From an uncultured Candidatus Saccharibacteria bacterium (GTDB lineage: Bacteria > Patescibacteriota > Minisyncoccia > UBA6257 > 1-14-0-10-44-23): 64,000 nucleotides of DNA. Position 1 is the stretch's first letter. Each line of letters starts with the position of its first letter. Where the stretch lies: positions 14,196 to 78,195 of the forward strand of contig CAYMXN010000002.1 of NCBI GenBank assembly GCA_964394435.1, read 5' to 3'. Both the position numbers and the translations under genes were made by a program. Below the pieces are notes generated by a model. It was given only the letters and a program-made list of their open reading frames with translations. It did no database searches and was not told the origin of the DNA. Of the stretch, positions 3,435 through 24,989 are shown one piece after another.

Positions 3435-5492
<2,058 letters not shown>

Positions 5493-5597: not shown

Positions 5598-6998
5598 TTA
5601 ATTATTACTATTTTGTGGGTTGGGCGTTGTCTGGGCACTACACGATGCGGGTGCACTACACGCGTAGCTCTGCCCTTTAGTGATCTCAACCCAGCTCAAC
5701 TCGCCCACTTTTTGATTATTAGCGTCATAGAGTACAACCGAGTTGTTGGTATAGGCGAGCGAGTATGAGGCGGGAAATGTAATGTCGGCCGAAACTGAAC
5801 CGGAGTATGATCCGTCATGACCAATTAAGAAATGCTTTCCGGCCGGGATCACCTTTCCTTCAAGCCTGCTTGTCGCAACCAGCGAGGACTCGGTGCCGGA
5901 AGAGGTTTTCTTTTTCAGCGAGTATCCGGTAAGGGTTATGTCACTCGCAGTCGTATTATACAGTTCGATAAACTCATCGCTGGCGTTTACTTCTGTGCCC
6001 GCCATCACCTCACTTATAAAGAGCGAGCCCACGGTTGTACTTGGCTGCGTAGGTTGCTCGGGCGCTGCTGGCGTCGAGGTTGGTTCTGATTGTGTTGGTG
6101 CTGGAGTTGGAGTTGACTCAACTGGTGCGGATGACGATGGCGCTTCGGCTACGGCAGAAGCTGGAGCGGGTGGTGGCGAGTTTTCGGCCTTAGGAGTACC
6201 GAAGATAGTACCTGCAGCACCTCCAAGATATGTGTGCCACGCGTAATTAGGTGATCGTTCCATCGAACGCTTTGCTTCTGCATCTCCAGCGGGCCAGTCC
6301 GGACTGGCGACCACCTCATCAATTAGAAAGCAGTTTTTATCAAACAGTCGCAGCGCCTCGTTGCTATTTGAAAGCGCACCAACATACACTGCGTCAGCTT
6401 TGATCGTTGGAAGTGCCGCCTCATCGCGCTCGAGCATAAAAAATCCGCCAATACCCAAATGGGTCTGCGGAGGAATACGAACCTTAATCTGCTCTGTCTT
6501 ATCGATGAGTTGCCAGCCGGAAATATCTAACTGACTCCCGCTGATATTTTTCAACTCTACCCACTCGTGATTACTATTAGCCGAACTGCCCATCCAACCA
6601 ACTTCATTTATAATCATTCCGCGGTAGCTCGGAAACTGATTAGTCATAAATGAGCATACCTTCTCTTCAACTGGCGGCGGAGCTTCTTTTGCGACTACCA
6701 CCGGTGAGGTGGTCGCCTCCTCGCTTTTTGTCGATTGCACACCAAGCACTGCGGGCGTATTCGTGTGACTAACTGGCACGCTCGACTTTTTTGCCACTAC
6801 CAAACCCTGCTCGGGTGCCTGACCTACTGTCGAGCTCGCCTCGGGACTCATCTGGGTACTCACCTGCGCCAAGTATTGAAAATTGCTTTGCGGTGAAGCT
6901 ACATTTTTCACGCTTGAAATACCGAGAATCGCCATCACTCCAACCAGCGCCGCACCGGCGATCCAGCCAATGAGAACTTTGAGTGATACCCCATTCAT
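5598..6998 (-). CDS. membrane-anchored protein with two lamin-tail domains (LTD)
   Basis: N-terminal TM helix. Two segments match the LTD signature (INEVGWMGSSANSNHEWVELKN.., FISEVMAGTEVNASDEFIELYNTT..). Pro/Ala/Ser-rich linkers. Confidence 0.75.
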   Translation of the reverse strand: MNGVSLKVLIGWIAGAALVGVMAILGISSVKNVASPQSNFQYLAQVSTQMSPEASSTVGQAPEQGLVVAKKSSVPVSHTNTPAVLGVQSTKSEEATTSPVVVAKEAPPPVEEKVCSFMTNQFPSYRGMIINEVGWMGSSANSNHEWVELKNISGSQLDISGWQLIDKTEQIKVRIPPQTHLGIGGFFMLERDEAALPTIKADAVYVGALSNSNEALRLFDKNCFLIDEVVASPDWPAGDAEAKRSMERSPNYAWHTYLGGAAGTIFGTPKAENSPPPAPASAVAEAPSSSAPVESTPTPAPTQSEPTSTPAAPEQPTQPSTTVGSLFISEVMAGTEVNASDEFIELYNTTASDITLTGYSLKKKTSSGTESSLVATSRLEGKVIPAGKHFLIGHDGSYSGSVSADITFPASYSLAYTNNSVVLYDANNQKVGELSWVEITKGQSYACSAPASCSAQTTPNPQNSNN

Positions 6999-7941: not shown

Positions 7942-8223
7942 ATGGCACATACAAAATCAGGTGGTTCCACAAAATTAGGACGAGATTCAGAAAGTAAGCG
8001 CCTTGGCGTCAAATTGAACCACGGCCAGTTAGCTCACGCCGGTCAGATTATCATCCGCCAGCGCGGTACCGCAGTTATCGCCGGAGTTAACGTTCGCCGC
8101 GGAGCTGATGACACCCTCTACGCTGCTAAGACTGGTACAGTCAACTTTAAACAGACCAAGAAGACTCGCTTTGATGGCACCCGCCGCTACGCGAAGATCG
8201 TCAGCGTTACTGTGGCTAAATAA
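7942..8223 (+). CDS. rpmA: 50S ribosomal protein L27
   Basis: [24 protein letters not shown] is the classic L27 N-terminus. A TATAAT lies about 40 nt upstream. Confidence 0.95.
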
Positions 8224-20917: not shown

Positions 20918-21125
20918 AGCGATATATCTATTATAGTACAGTTTCATTTCGCTCACGAACAAAACCGGCGCATATTGCGAAAATATGTCAAAATCTATAG
21001 AATAACGGCACGCTTCAATATCGGTAGCCAAGTGCCCCTTCTCTGCACTTCGTGACGATATTGTGGGCTCGCCAAACCGAAAGTCTTAATCAAAAGGACT
21101 GTAGGTGCTGAGCGCAGTGAAGCAT

Positions 21126-21167
21126 TGCCAGATCGCCTGCCTGCGCAGGCAGGTCTAATGGTAGGAC
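21126..21167 (+). pseudogene. duplicated 5' fragment of tRNA-Gln (nt 1-24) interrupted by an 18-bp perfect palindrome
   Basis: TGCCAGATCG[CCTGCCTGCGCAGGCAGG]TCTAATGGTAGGAC matches the first 24 nt of the intact tRNA-Gln at 21425, apart from the palindromic insertion. Confidence 0.6.
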
Positions 21168-21171
21168 TAAT

Positions 21172-21420
21172 ATGTGGCACGTCTATCTTCTAAAAAGCCA
21201 GAAACAAAAATGGTATTATGTCGGGAGTACAAACCGACTCGAAGAAAGACTTAGCGAGCATAATCAGGGTCGAGTGCGATCGACTAAGAGCTATCGTCCA
21301 CTAGATATTGCCTACGCTAAGGAGTTCGGAAGCGAGAAAGAAGCGAGAAGTTATGAGAGAATGATAAAAGACAGGCGCATACTAAAGGAAGCGATTGTAC
21401 GAGAAATTGAAGGAAGGTAA
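21172..21420 (+). CDS. GIY-YIG nuclease family protein (YhbQ/Slx1-like, 82 aa)
   Basis: WHVYLLKS...KWYYVGSTNRLEERLSEHNQG is the GIY-YIG signature. The gene fills the gap between the tRNA fragment and the intact tRNA exactly. Confidence 0.8.
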   Translation: MWHVYLLKSQKQKWYYVGSTNRLEERLSEHNQGRVRSTKSYRPLDIAYAKEFGSEKEARSYERMIKDRRILKEAIVREIEGR

Positions 21421-21424
21421 ATAT

Positions 21425-21495
21425 TGCCAGATCGTCTAATGGTAGGACAGCGGACTCTGAATCCGCGAATCTTGGTTCGATTCCAGGTCTGGCAG
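21425..21495 (+). tRNA. tRNA-Gln (anticodon CUG)
   Basis: Manual cloverleaf: acceptor TGCCAGA/TCTGGCA, D arm GTCT..GGAC, anticodon stem GCGGA/TCCGC with loop CTCTGAA, T arm CTTGG-TTCGATT-CCAGG. U1-A72 as in bacterial tRNA-Gln. Confidence 0.85.
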
Positions 21496-21551
21496 CAAAG
21501 TTAAAATAGGTTCGGAGTCCGAGGAGCTTAACAGATTTAAATAATTAAATT

Positions 21552-21953
21552 ATGAATAATTTTGAGCTGGAAGGATGGGACGAAATAAATCAAAACGGAG
21601 GTACTATTGGAACGGGTATAAATAAATCTATTCACAAGCTCACCGTTGCAATATTCAACTCTGGCTCAAAAACCTCTACTCATGTAGGTTATCTTAAGGA
21701 TAAGGTTGAACAGCTAAATAAGAATCTGGAAGAATCGAGTAAATCCTCCGATAGGAATTCCAGAGCGATGAAGTATTTAACCGGAGCTTTGGTTTTTCTG
21801 GGTATCGTGCAAGTTCTAGTAGCTTGGTTAAGCTATTCTGCCGATCGATCAATAATTGGAACTAAGAAAAATTGCTATAAAACTGCACTTCAAACTTCTG
21901 ATATAGAATTAAACTATAGAAGCTGCCTTCATAGCAATGGACTTTCAGAATAA
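21552..21953 (+). CDS. hypothetical single-TM protein in AT-rich island
   Basis: 133 aa with one predicted TM helix (YLTGALVFLGIVQVLVAWLSY). About 33 percent GC. Confidence 0.4.
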   Translation: MNNFELEGWDEINQNGGTIGTGINKSIHKLTVAIFNSGSKTSTHVGYLKDKVEQLNKNLEESSKSSDRNSRAMKYLTGALVFLGIVQVLVAWLSYSADRSIIGTKKNCYKTALQTSDIELNYRSCLHSNGLSE

Positions 21954-21977
21954 ATATGCTTCAAATAGTGTAATTCT

Positions 21978-23009
21978 ATGGAAGAAAGAACAAGTCCTAA
22001 GCAACTTAAGTCAGATACAAGACAGTGGAATTCTGGCAGGGTTCATTTTGCAGTCATTGGTTGGCCAGGAAAACCTGAGGATAATTATATTGTTTTTCAA
22101 AAAAATTTCTTTGGAAAAACGAAAAACCAAGACCAAAAATTCAATTTACGTTTTAGAGATTGGCAAAATCTCAAGAAGCTTATTGATGGCGAGTTGACCC
22201 CTATTACTGAGTGGGAAAAGACAATTTCTGTCGTTGACAAAGAAAGTCTCGAAAAACTCATAAATGATGATCCTGATATTTTTTCAAAAGTCCTAGCAAG
22301 TCCGAATATATTAAAGTTGAGCGATTCCAGCTTCGAATCTCTTGATCGAATTGCAGTAAAAATATACGAAGTTAAGGCAGAAAAAATTGATCTAATCTTA
22401 AAAAAGATAGCTGAGACGCCATCAGCAGATCTCGAAAAGTTTAGTACCCTATTGAATGATTTGAGACTAAACCAGATTTCAATGATGACCACTTTGGTTT
22501 ACCAGAAATTAAAAATAATTGATTTGCTTGAAAAAGTTATCATATCTCCTAGAAGTAAAGAAAAGGATGTACATCAGATTTTTGAAAAACACCCATGGCT
22601 TTTGGGGAGAGCTTTCGAAATCGTTTCAAGTGATAAGGCGCTTATAAATTATCTAGAAACAAATTTACAAGAAGACCCAGAAACCCGCGTAAGACCTGAT
22701 ATAATCGCCAGCACTATTCCTTACACAAATGATGTCGTAATTATTGAACTTAAAAAACCAGGGATTAAACTTAAGGCAAAACATATTGGACAAGTCCTGG
22801 AGTATAAGGCATTAGTACAAAGACATAAGCCAAATGTAAAGAATATAAATTGTTTTGTTTTTGGTTACGAGAAAGATACCACTTTTACTTTTTCAAAAGA
22901 TGCAACAATAAAGACTTTCTCAGAATTAGTATCAGAGCTTAGGCATGAATACAAAGAATATCAAAAAGTATTAGATGTAGGAAAAGATCTTGAAGTAGAA
23001 AATTTATGA
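21978..23009 (+). CDS. PD-(D/E)xK nuclease-domain protein, Shedu(DUF4263)/NERD-like candidate anti-phage defense protein
   Basis: C-terminal region KEKDVHQIFEKHPWLLG...RPDIIAS...NDVVIIELKKP...QVLEYK shows the D...E-x-K restriction-endonuclease-fold motif and the hPWLlG element I associate with DUF4263. The N-terminal 200 aa were not recognised. Confidence 0.55.
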   Translation: MEERTSPKQLKSDTRQWNSGRVHFAVIGWPGKPEDNYIVFQKNFFGKTKNQDQKFNLRFRDWQNLKKLIDGELTPITEWEKTISVVDKESLEKLINDDPDIFSKVLASPNILKLSDSSFESLDRIAVKIYEVKAEKIDLILKKIAETPSADLEKFSTLLNDLRLNQISMMTTLVYQKLKIIDLLEKVIISPRSKEKDVHQIFEKHPWLLGRAFEIVSSDKALINYLETNLQEDPETRVRPDIIASTIPYTNDVVIIELKKPGIKLKAKHIGQVLEYKALVQRHKPNVKNINCFVFGYEKDTTFTFSKDATIKTFSELVSELRHEYKEYQKVLDVGKDLEVENL

Positions 23010-23107
23010 TATTCCGAAAAATGGTGAAGTGATAAGATTATTGTAATTATTATAAAACACTTGTGGGGGTGAGGTATGAAAATATCCAAATCCGATGAGG
23101 TCGACAA

Positions 23108-23704
23108 ATGAATAAAAACGAATTCCCTCGAGCAATTCAGTTTCTAGAAAGTTTAAATGTCTCCTACTATATCCATGCCGGATTTGCGATGCACCTACAT
23201 GGACTCCTGTCTGACCTCGATGATTTAGATGTGCGCATCGACCACCCAAATCTCGAGCAGGTTTTAAAACAAGCAAAGGAAAATTTTGCCTGCCCCGTGC
23301 TATTAACCATCGGTGGCGAATATGATAATGGGCAGTATCGCTTTGGTCGTATAGAGATCGAAGCATCAACCCCTATCGATATCTGCTCATCAATGGGAGT
23401 TATTAATGATTGGGGCACCGTCGACTTCCCTCCCTTCGCGACCTCTTCGCTGAATAGCACGGCAATCAACTATCATGGTGTGTCGGCGCGAGTTGCCTCC
23501 CCGGAGACATTGCTGTTGTATTACCTTATCTTACGCCGGAAGCAGAATAAAAATGACAAAGAAAAAATTAGAGCCCTATTTTTATCAGGGAAAATTAATG
23601 AGGATCGATTCCGCGCGCTCTTAAAAAATAACAAACATGAATCTCAAATCCTAAACCTATATCGGTATTATAAAAAAATAGCTTCTAAACCTAGGAATAA
23701 GTAG
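23108..23704 (+). CDS. nucleotidyltransferase, Lnu/ANT-like (Pol-beta superfamily)
   Basis: VSYYIHAGFAMHLHGLLSDLDDLDVRID follows the hG[GS]x9-13Dh[DE]h NTase signature. Overall pattern resembles lincosamide/aminoglycoside nucleotidyltransferases. Confidence 0.5.
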   Translation: MNKNEFPRAIQFLESLNVSYYIHAGFAMHLHGLLSDLDDLDVRIDHPNLEQVLKQAKENFACPVLLTIGGEYDNGQYRFGRIEIEASTPIDICSSMGVINDWGTVDFPPFATSSLNSTAINYHGVSARVASPETLLLYYLILRRKQNKNDKEKIRALFLSGKINEDRFRALLKNNKHESQILNLYRYYKKIASKPRNK

Positions 23705-23726: not shown

Positions 23727-24503
23727 ATGCTTCACGATTTCCTCATCTTCGCCCTTAAACAGGCGCGGGCGGCGCTGTTTGCCGGAGTGTTTTTGTTTTT
23801 GATTTTCGCCTCAAAATATATTGCGATTCCGGGATTATATCGCTACGACTTTCTCTTTTTGGCCGCAGTAGCCATTCAGCTCCTGATGCTTCTGTTTAAG
23901 CTCGAGACAGTAGATGAAGCTAAGACTATCGTCCTCTTTCACCTCATCGGTCTTATCCTTGAGATTTATAAAACCAGTCCAGCGATTGGGTCGTGGACGT
24001 ATCCGGAGCCTGGGTACCTGAAGATTTTTACCGTGCCACTGTATAGCGGATTTATGTACGCTTCGATTGGCAGCTATATCGCTCACGCGTGGAAGGGCTT
24101 TAACCTTAAACTCATCAACTCCCCTCGCTATCTCTATAGCATCATCCTCTGCGCACTTATCTATCTCAACTTTTTTACCAACCACTTTATATATGACTTT
24201 CGTCTTTTTCTTATCGCGGGAATCTTTATCTTATACCGAAAAGCTTACGTTGAGTTTACGCCGGATAAGCGCACCTATCGCCTTCCGCTTAATGTCAGCT
24301 TTTTACTCATCTCGCTCTTTGTGTGGATAGCGGAAAATATCGGAACGTTTTATGGCGCGTGGCAGTACCCTTCGCAGATTCACGCGTGGCAAATTGTTTC
24401 GTTTCAAAAAATCACCTCGTGGTTTTTGATGGTGATTATCTCCTTTATCATCGTCGCGTATTTAAAACATGTTAAGGCGGAGCGTACTTTGAATGCCGCT
24501 TAG
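23727..24503 (+). CDS. polytopic membrane protein (DUF817-like)
   Basis: 258 aa, about 8 predicted TM helices. Length and hydrophobicity pattern are consistent with the DUF817 family. Confidence 0.5.
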   Translation: MLHDFLIFALKQARAALFAGVFLFLIFASKYIAIPGLYRYDFLFLAAVAIQLLMLLFKLETVDEAKTIVLFHLIGLILEIYKTSPAIGSWTYPEPGYLKIFTVPLYSGFMYASIGSYIAHAWKGFNLKLINSPRYLYSIILCALIYLNFFTNHFIYDFRLFLIAGIFILYRKAYVEFTPDKRTYRLPLNVSFLLISLFVWIAENIGTFYGAWQYPSQIHAWQIVSFQKITSWFLMVIISFIIVAYLKHVKAERTLNAA

Positions 24504-24575: not shown

Positions 24576-24989
24576 ATGAGGTGTACTTTGAAGCGTTCCT
24601 TTCTGCTCGCACTCGCGCTGATCGTGATGGCACTCGGCTTCCTGAACTCCCCGCTGGTCGAGCCGGCCAACGCTGGCGGCTTCACCATGCTGCTGCCGAA
24701 CACCCCGGTGTTCTCGATTGGGGTCTGGAGTCTGGAGACCGACGACTTCAAGTCGGTGGTCGTCCCTGCGGACCGGGCCGCCGACCTCTGCGCGGCGCTG
24801 GGCATCTCCATAAGCCAGGGCACGTTTAGCACGGCGGCCCAGGTCGTCACACTCAACCCGAACGCCACGGCGATCGTGACGTGCGATTGTCAGCCCACCC
24901 AGGGCCTATCCACGTACTGGGGAGTCCAGAGTACGTGCTGGCAGGACCAGTACGCACAGTTCTCTTTCGAGCAGGTCAACACACGCTGA
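24576..24989 (+). CDS. secreted Cys-containing small protein, GC-rich cassette B
   Basis: Signal peptide (..LLALALIVMALGFLNSPLVEPANA), mature domain with CDC...C...C. GC is about 62 percent. Terminator follows. The start could instead be the TTG at 24588. Confidence 0.5.
   Translation: MRCTLKRSFLLALALIVMALGFLNSPLVEPANAGGFTMLLPNTPVFSIGVWSLETDDFKSVVVPADRAADLCAALGISISQGTFSTAAQVVTLNPNATAIVTCDCQPTQGLSTYWGVQSTCWQDQYAQFSFEQVNTR

Follow-up and report, generated by a model that had tools for sequence, protein, structure and literature searches.

A divergent family of small nucleotidyltransferases, distantly related to ANT(2'')-Ia, TM1012 and Lnu(A), and its independence from a neighboring Shedu-like nuclease at a Candidatus Saccharibacteria locus

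A 198-residue open reading frame in the DNA of an uncultured Candidatus Saccharibacteria bacterium raises two questions, namely what reaction its product catalyzes and whether it does so in partnership with the nuclease gene that precedes it. The gene occupies positions 23108..23704 of the plus strand (ATG start, stop codon included in the span) in a 64-kb window, the window being the whole stretch of 64,000 nucleotides that was analyzed. The original prediction assigned the product a Pol-beta nucleotidyltransferase (NTase) signature, likened it to lincosamide/aminoglycoside NTases or minimal NTase toxins, placed it beside a defense-like island, and suggested that it may form a two-gene immunity or resistance module with the nuclease. 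The motif quoted in support of the signature, ...VSYYIHAGFAMHLHGLLSDLDDLDVRID..., is contained exactly in the ORF. The ATG is preceded at a distance of 7 nt by GAGG (23097..23100, plus strand), a Shine-Dalgarno-like element that was read from the sequence and is putative in function; scans for promoters and terminators in its vicinity gave results no better than those for shuffled sequence. No paralog was found within the 64-kb window. The encoded protein is basic, with a pI of 9.0, and its C-terminal domain has a pI of 10.3.

Scans with the Pfam, NCBIfam and PADLOC models did not recognize this protein, their sole match being to Imm8 (E=0.23), which is noise. Neither the ORF nor its neighbors match NTP_transf_2/MNT-type Pfam models, and the single sequence has no match in the PDB. 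When 1.84 billion representatives were searched exhaustively with HMMER, however, 32 relatives were recovered at E<=1e-3, counted as representatives at 50% identity; they are about 190-220 residues long, are matched over their full length and are all metagenomic. A word-indexed search of 5.8 billion proteins with the single sequence returned two proteins, the NTase itself and one relative of 78% identity, and the same type of search with the family profile returned four. Four loci were obtained from a metagenome collection searched with a sub-alignment of the family, genome contigs searched with the single protein yielded no relative, and a tblastn search of plasmids and phages gave no match.

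The Pol-beta-like nucleotidyltransferase fold superfamily is defined by three motifs, [DE]h[DE]h, h[DE]h and hG[GS] (PMC2794190), of which the first two are present, and the third has a variant, in the alignment of 33 family members, on which the conservation figures given here are based. The metal-binding [DE]h[DE]h motif is D39-L-D41-V (23222..23233, plus strand), which the alignment and the model place on strand beta2 (residues 40-44 of the model) and which is followed by a conserved arginine, R43; D39 and D41 are invariant in all 33 sequences, and the motif aligns through the family profile with the DIDI of TM1012 and LnuA. The third carboxylate, a putative catalytic base, is D91 in the h[DE]h motif I90-D91-I92 (23375..23383, plus strand; strand 90-93); it is conserved in at least 90% of the sequences, is replaced by Glu in the three members without Asp, and is always Asp or Glu in full-length members. 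Where the superfamily has hG[GS], this family has hAG (H23-A24-G25). The A24-G25 pair (23177..23182, plus strand) lies at the beta1/alpha2 junction, and G25, which is at least 90% conserved, opens the helix spanning residues 24-30 of the model and is aligned with the serine in the "GS" of TM1012. The other residues conserved at this level are R43, P108, Y138, R143, R144 and D150. The last four belong to a family-specific C-terminal motif, Y138-Y-L-x-L-R143-R144-(G)-x4-K148-x-D150 (23519..23557, plus strand), which occupies the first helix and turn of the bundle, and they show little or no variation in alignments A2, A3 (the C-terminal domain alone) and A5 (residues 86-198). Searches of the PDB and Pfam with the C-terminal profiles from A3 and A5 gave no genuine match and no residue-level alignment to MenT1 or ANT(2''); a match of these profiles to EF-hand/troponin-like proteins is spurious.

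With the family profile, in contrast to the single sequence, a significant match was obtained in the PDB to TM1012, a "putative nucleotidyltransferase" from Thermotoga (E=5.7e-9, positions 8-137). A second match, to LnuA, covers positions 5-81 (E~9e-4), and that to an AbiEii toxin is weak (E=0.13). The TM1012 fragment is a clear member of PF10706 (Aminoglyc_resit; 3e-31), and weak PF10706 matches are found in 9 of the 33 family members, with a best value of 6.4e-5, but the query NTase has no match to this model, which has a gathering threshold of 21 bits, even at E<=1. None of the 33 members matches AbiEii/DUF1814 (PF08843) at E<=1, and none matches the LicD Pfam model. In the profile comparison with the ANT(2''), Lnu, MNT and AbiEii families, which had been proposed as a check on the original prediction, remote relationships to TM1012/PF10706 and LnuA were detected; the AbiEii model matched no member, no MNT match was found, and the query itself falls below the PF10706 threshold.

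A structural model was generated with AlphaFold from the 33-sequence alignment (pLDDT 95.7, pTM 0.91), which was used in place of a two-sequence alignment that gave an unusable AF2 model (pLDDT 42.6). [quoted passage not shown] A Foldseek search of the PDB returned 22 matches at E<=1e-3, all of which have the NTase fold. The top match is MenT1, over the full length (E=7e-6, TM 0.55-0.66), followed by TM1012 (8e-6), 5UVD, LnuA (1e-4) and ANT(2'')-Ia (2e-4), with FKRP, JHP933 and CCA-adding enzymes lower in the order. It should be noted that, although the Foldseek probability is 1.0 for MenT1, TM1012, LnuA and ANT(2'')-Ia, the TM-scores are only 0.5-0.66. The BFVD structure search gave weak matches to LicD-type viral models alone. 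The Pol-beta NTase signature is thus borne out by the motif as quoted, the two aspartates common to all 33 sequences, the TM1012 match and the modeled fold, and the resemblance to lincosamide/aminoglycoside NTases or minimal NTase toxins is reflected in the nearest relatives, PF10706, Lnu(A) and MenT/AbiEii.

Comparison with these relatives places the family as a distant sister of PF10706, the group of ANT(2'')-Ia and TM1012, and of Lnu(A). TM1012 (PDB 2EWR/2FCL/4HX0) and PF10706 are the best relatives at the level of sequence and share the G...DxD...D catalytic layout and an "hPVxSxE" entry to the C-terminal domain, but identity is only about 12-18%, and the family has a motif of its own, YY..RRG....K.D, together with a C-terminal bundle of greater length. 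In ANT(2'')-Ia the NT domain is followed by two beta-hairpins and then by a helical bundle; Asp44 and Asp46 bind Mg2+, and Asp86 acts as the catalytic base (PMC4313920). The secondary structure of the model reproduces the published domain order, and D39, D41 and D91 correspond to Asp44, Asp46 and Asp86; the separation of D41 and D91 is 50 residues, as compared with 40 in ANT(2'')-Ia, reflecting a longer beta3-beta4 insert. Lnu(A) (PDB 4FO1/4WH5) has a similar N-terminal NT domain with the motif GG..(x)..DIDI (Foldseek TM 0.50-0.60) but is shorter (161 residues), and the sequence alignment is confined to its N-terminal 80 residues. MenT1/AbiEii resembles the NTase in its bilobed form, the NT lobe being built on a beta-sheet and the other of helices, in its DxD and in a similarly spaced C-terminal Asp, whereas the NTase lacks a match to the Pfam model PF08843, the Lys of motif III, a cognate antitoxin and a conserved neighbor. 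MNT-HEPN proteins are likewise small Pol-beta-fold NTases, but the present enzyme is larger, has a different C-terminal domain and has no HEPN gene nearby. The ORF therefore represents a divergent, previously unannotated family within a well-known superfamily, and nothing in the family is contrary to the expectations for that superfamily.

The second question, that of a partnership with the nuclease, can be addressed from the chromosomal setting. The window contains genes for GyrB, MreB, PBP2, MurA, RNase J, an aminoacyl-tRNA synthetase and a type IV pilus and is ordinary chromosome with core genes, not a large defense island. GyrB has its best match, at 79%, in a "Candidatus Saccharibacteria" MAG, with a Wolfebacteria (CPR) MAG among those that come next, which identifies the host as a CPR/Patescibacteria bacterium. 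The NTase gene lies in a small variable spot (21.4-25.0 kb) between a tRNA-Gln and a PsbP_2-like gene, which holds a low-GC nuclease cassette, the NTase, a DUF817 gene and an orphan ORF of 63% GC. The tRNA-Gln(CUG) was identified at 21425..21496 (plus strand) by ARAGORN and Rfam, and the cassette follows as 1,609 bp at 21500..23108 (plus strand), flanked on both sides by CAAA (21496-21499 and 23105-23108). The cassette contains a 133-residue ORF (21552-21953) and the nuclease gene next to the NTase to which the original prediction referred (21978-23009), which encodes 343 residues with a PD-(D/E)xK-like stretch (...VVIIELKKP...). The nuclease is Shedu-like in that it matches the Pfam model SduA_C (SduA_C/DUF4263) at E=6.4e-5, a sub-threshold score of 23.6 bits (cut-off 27); PADLOC reported no Shedu match for it.

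The closest relative of the NTase is encoded in a 997-bp metagenomic contig, designated L006, with a gene that is 79% identical to that in the window. The first 56 nt of this contig match the 3' part of the window tRNA-Gln at every position, the NTase ATG is located 2 nt past the last base of the tRNA, and a core gene begins 18 nt downstream of the NTase; the 133-residue ORF and the nuclease are both missing, as judged by blastn. Since L006 places the tRNA-Gln directly before the NTase, positions 21500-23108 of the window represent extra DNA. The GC3 of the cassette is 27-31%, against 45% for the NTase gene, in a window of 48% GC, and this composition favors insertion of the cassette in the lineage of the window, although a microhomology-mediated deletion in L006 could instead account for the difference. 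In either case the NTase has been retained without the nuclease. The DUF817 gene has also been lost from L006, by deletion, and the orphan ORF of 63% GC is missing there as well. An integrative island anchored at the tRNA was considered as the location of the NTase and rejected: the 3' end of the tRNA-Gln occurs only once in the window, without an att-like repeat, and no direct repeats of note were found there.

The nuclease has a distribution of its own. Its family comprises at least 115 clusters at 90% identity; those with a named source come mostly from CPR phyla, and eight of the 115 clusters carry a precomputed PF14082 (Shedu SduA_C) tag. Homologs of 70-84% nucleotide identity were found in six other loci, representing three distinct neighborhoods, and there the similarity ends at the borders of the nuclease gene. 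None of the six contains a match to the NTase profile even at E<=10 or a homolog of the 133-residue ORF and, conversely, no Shedu-like gene is a neighbor in any NTase context examined. The proposal that the two genes form an immunity or resistance module, for example with the NTase as sensor or regulator and the nuclease as effector, draws on their common strand, the 98-nt gap between them and the Shedu-like character of the nuclease. It is refuted by the L006 ortholog, which has neither nuclease nor 133-residue ORF, by the foreign composition of the cassette and by the separate occurrence of the two genes, which also differ in abundance (at least 115 nuclease clusters at 90% identity versus 32 NTase representatives at 50% identity), and such a module is accordingly most improbable. 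The nuclease cassette is separable from the NTase and functionally unrelated to it.

An all-versus-all comparison of about ten NTase contexts was also made. No neighbor family is common to them, with the exception of non-adjacent ABC/MacB/NUDIX genes present in both L106 and L107. The NTase gene is accompanied by an upstream tRNA-Gln and a weak DUF3990-like ORF downstream in L011, by a divergent Schlafen/AlbA_2 gene and a trypsin-like peptidase in L014/L015, by a 712-residue methyltransferase-like protein in L007, by a MazE/AbrB-domain protein 63 nt upstream in L010, by a VanW-like protein in L103, by two AA_kinase genes in L106 and by an MFS transporter in L107. In the window, a gene for a DUF817 membrane protein (23727..24503, plus strand; Pfam PF05675, E=7e-93) begins 22 nt downstream of the NTase and may be co-transcribed with it; as a conserved partner it can be dismissed, being adjacent to the NTase in the window alone and absent beside every other family member examined. 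Pfam, NCBIfam and PADLOC scans found no HEPN or antitoxin-like gene flanking the window NTase, and in L006 the gene is so tightly enclosed between the tRNA-Gln (2 nt) and the core gene (18 nt) that there is no room for a partner. Adjacency to tRNA-Gln is not borne out as a family trait, as it is seen among the approximately ten contexts only in the window/L006 pair and in L011; the NTases of these two lineages, both right behind tRNA-Gln, are only 40% identical. The NTase therefore works as a stand-alone protein and not in a two-gene system with the nuclease.

The gene also has the appearance of a long-term resident. Its dN/dS relative to the 79%-identical ortholog of L006 is 0.088, with dS saturated at about 1.6, and this ratio, which is similar to that of the flanking core gene (0.077), indicates purifying selection and suggests that the enzyme is probably active. 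Across lineages the GC content of the NTase gene follows that of the host contig, from 0.28 to 0.48, so that the gene looks like a resident and not a recent import. The conservation of the quoted motif in the 33-member alignment, together with the profile relatives, the modeled fold and the dN/dS, shows that it is not a chance match. The basic character of the query is not general in the family, which has a median pI of 5.9, with values below 7 in 24 of the 33 members.

The analysis thus establishes an NTase fold with three catalytic carboxylates, under purifying selection and with no conserved partner gene. The likeliest reading, held with moderate confidence, is that the protein is a stand-alone, catalytically competent, two-domain minimal NTase that acts on a hydroxyl group of a small molecule, whether an antibiotic, a xenobiotic or a metabolite. 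By analogy with the chemistry of the superfamily (PMC2794190, PMC4313920), D39 and D41 would bind two Mg2+ ions that hold the NTP, and D91 would act as a third ligand or as a general base to activate the substrate hydroxyl, which would then attack the alpha-phosphate to give an O-nucleotidylylated acceptor and PPi. The acceptor is predicted to bind between the NT domain and the helices of the C-terminal bundle, in a cleft that would be lined by the conserved Y138/Y139, R143/R144, K148 and D150. A small-molecule acceptor is favored because PF10706 and Lnu are the only significant sequence relatives, and because of the domain architecture of the ANT(2'')-Ia type, the lack of an antitoxin and the mostly acidic character of the members. 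The neighbors seen in single contexts, an MFS transporter, MacB-type ABC exporters, a VanW-like protein and an APH-family kinase, lean weakly in the same direction. The absence of the family from plasmids and phages makes it a poor fit to a mobile resistance gene, though it fits an intrinsic one.

Some features do not sit easily with a small-molecule acceptor. The best Foldseek E-value belongs to a tRNA-modifying toxin, MenT1, matched over the full length; the TM-scores are in the range of 0.5-0.66, the query is basic and does not reach the PF10706 threshold; and the invariant RR...K...D motif has no alignable counterpart in ANT(2'') or Lnu. The neighbors with a resistance flavor are, for their part, members of common gene families, each of which was seen once.

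Some CPR/Saccharibacteria-like bacteria live on antibiotic-producing Actinobacteria. Should aminoglycosides or lincosamides prove to be its substrates, the enzyme would count as a determinant of intrinsic resistance in bacteria of this type. In practical terms the gain is modest. For a small family that escapes the Pfam, NCBIfam and PADLOC models, annotation as an ANT(2'')/Lnu/TM1012-like NTase is now possible, together with a structural model of high confidence and a defined catalytic triad, and an assignment by genomic association has been corrected: the Shedu-like nuclease and the NTase are not partners.

The main alternative to small-molecule modification is that the protein is an NTase toxin like MenT or AbiEii, which would add nucleotides to the 3' ends of tRNAs, possibly tRNA-Gln, and so block aminoacylation, its activity being restrained either by an antitoxin encoded elsewhere or by the protein itself, for instance through auto-phosphorylation. 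The position of MenT1 at the head of the Foldseek matches (full length, E=7e-6, TM 0.55-0.66) is consistent with such a role, as are the weak AbiEii profile match (E=0.13) and the arrangement of D39/D41 and D150, which are spaced nearly like D41/D43 and D152 of MenT1 (PMC10435456). However, the AbiEii/DUF1814 model matches none of the 33 members, and no conserved lysine is found at the start of the C-terminal helix, where that of motif III (K137 of MenT1) would be expected and the family has Y138/Y139. The basic C-terminal domain of the query (pI 10.3) might suit a tRNA substrate, but most members of the family are acidic; similarly, the NTase gene is located directly 3' of tRNA-Gln in two lineages only 40% identical, but tRNA adjacency is absent in about eight of the ten contexts. 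The MazE/AbrB-domain protein 63 nt upstream of the L010 gene counts in favor of such a role; against it, no adjacent antitoxin is present, with no physical space for one in L006, and neighbors are not conserved across the approximately ten contexts. A toxin of this kind is, on balance, unlikely. A phosphotransferase of the LicD/FKRP type, which would transfer a phospho-alcohol (phosphocholine, ribitol-phosphate or glycerol-phosphate) from a CDP-donor to a glycan or lipid, is a minor alternative and an improbable one. FKRP was among the Foldseek matches (E~4e-4, TMq ~0.4), viral LicD-family models were found in the structure search, and for fukutin and FKRP the closest template was TM1012 (PMC2794190), but the TM-scores are lower and the coverage partial in comparison with ANT, Lnu and MenT, no member matches the LicD Pfam model, and genes for cell-envelope or glycan biosynthesis are not consistently nearby.

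A further proposal, of slim probability, is that the protein is an antitoxin-less relative of MenT that acts on tRNA, perhaps tRNA-Gln, as a regulatory or housekeeping modifier of tRNA 3' ends in CPR bacteria and is neither a toxin nor a resistance enzyme. The 2-nt spacing in L006 would then allow the gene to be co-transcribed with tRNA-Gln, with a near-leaderless mRNA being freed by processing of the tRNA 3' end. Were the enzyme to act on tRNA, MenT-type chemistry would be extended to antitoxin-free enzymes.

The low-GC cassette of 1,609 bp that lies between tRNA-Gln and the gene for the stand-alone nucleotidyltransferase (NTase) in the window (21500-23108) has a GC3 of 27-31% and carries the motif CAAA at either edge. 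Its gene content is an orphan 133-aa ORF, which has a TM segment at its C-terminal end, and the 343-aa Shedu-like PD-(D/E)xK nuclease, a representative of a family that is common across CPR genomes and is mobile as a single gene. A homolog of the nuclease with 84% nucleotide identity is found in GCA_964524915.1 (L016, 4215-7932), flanked by a 526-aa ABC/SMC-type ATPase and a DUF4145 protein; these surroundings look more like a defence island than those of the nuclease in the window.

An ORF of 82 aa encoding a GIY-YIG protein (window 21172-21420) is followed by the intact tRNA-Gln (21425-21496), and directly 5' of the ORF, at 21124-21170, the first ~25 nt of tRNA-Gln are duplicated in a partial copy that is split by a GC-rich palindrome of 18 nt (ttgccagatcg[CCTGCCTGCGCAGGCAGG]tctaatggtaggac). 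Because it is flanked by the split copy and the intact tRNA, the GIY-YIG gene has a tRNA-Gln 5' end on both sides, one partial and one complete, an arrangement that looks like the outcome of a mobile GIY-YIG cassette inserting into the tRNA gene, with regeneration of its target.

In the 997-bp contig of the closest relative (L006), the counterpart of window 21444-23110 is positions 1-60, where the last base of tRNA-Gln is followed by 2 nt and then by the ATG of the NTase gene. Given this spacing, the NTase mRNA of the relative must, as judged from the sequence, be co-transcribed with the tRNA, and 3' processing of the tRNA would leave it essentially leaderless. At the other end of the gene, the final 31 nt (L006 613-643) match the 3' end of the window's downstream DUF817 membrane protein gene (24445-24475) with 97% identity and are read in a different frame (...RRVFKTC*). 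The DUF817 gene has therefore been deleted in the relative, the deletion of ~0.8 kb having both removed it and re-coded the C terminus of the NTase. Missing from the same contig is a 137-aa ORF (window 24576-24989) with a GC content of 63% and a GC3 of 84%, as compared with 48% GC for the window; its N terminus is signal-peptide-like, it has no Pfam match, and it is probably a foreign gene.

A family member with only 40% identity to the query NTase (L011, 5001-5627) is likewise located 209 nt directly downstream of a tRNA-Gln gene with the anticodon UUG (4720-4791) on the same strand, in a 279-kb contig that is otherwise non-syntenic with the window; the remaining members of the NTase family lack this adjacency. 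Intergenic repeats of ~87-93 nt and 72-83% identity are present in this contig at 5645-5731, 6921-7007, and 9691-9777, and also at 6829-6921 and 8036-8128. They terminate in a TATAAT-like box together with the start codon of the gene that follows, and make up a promoter-like repeat family between the genes of this CPR contig.
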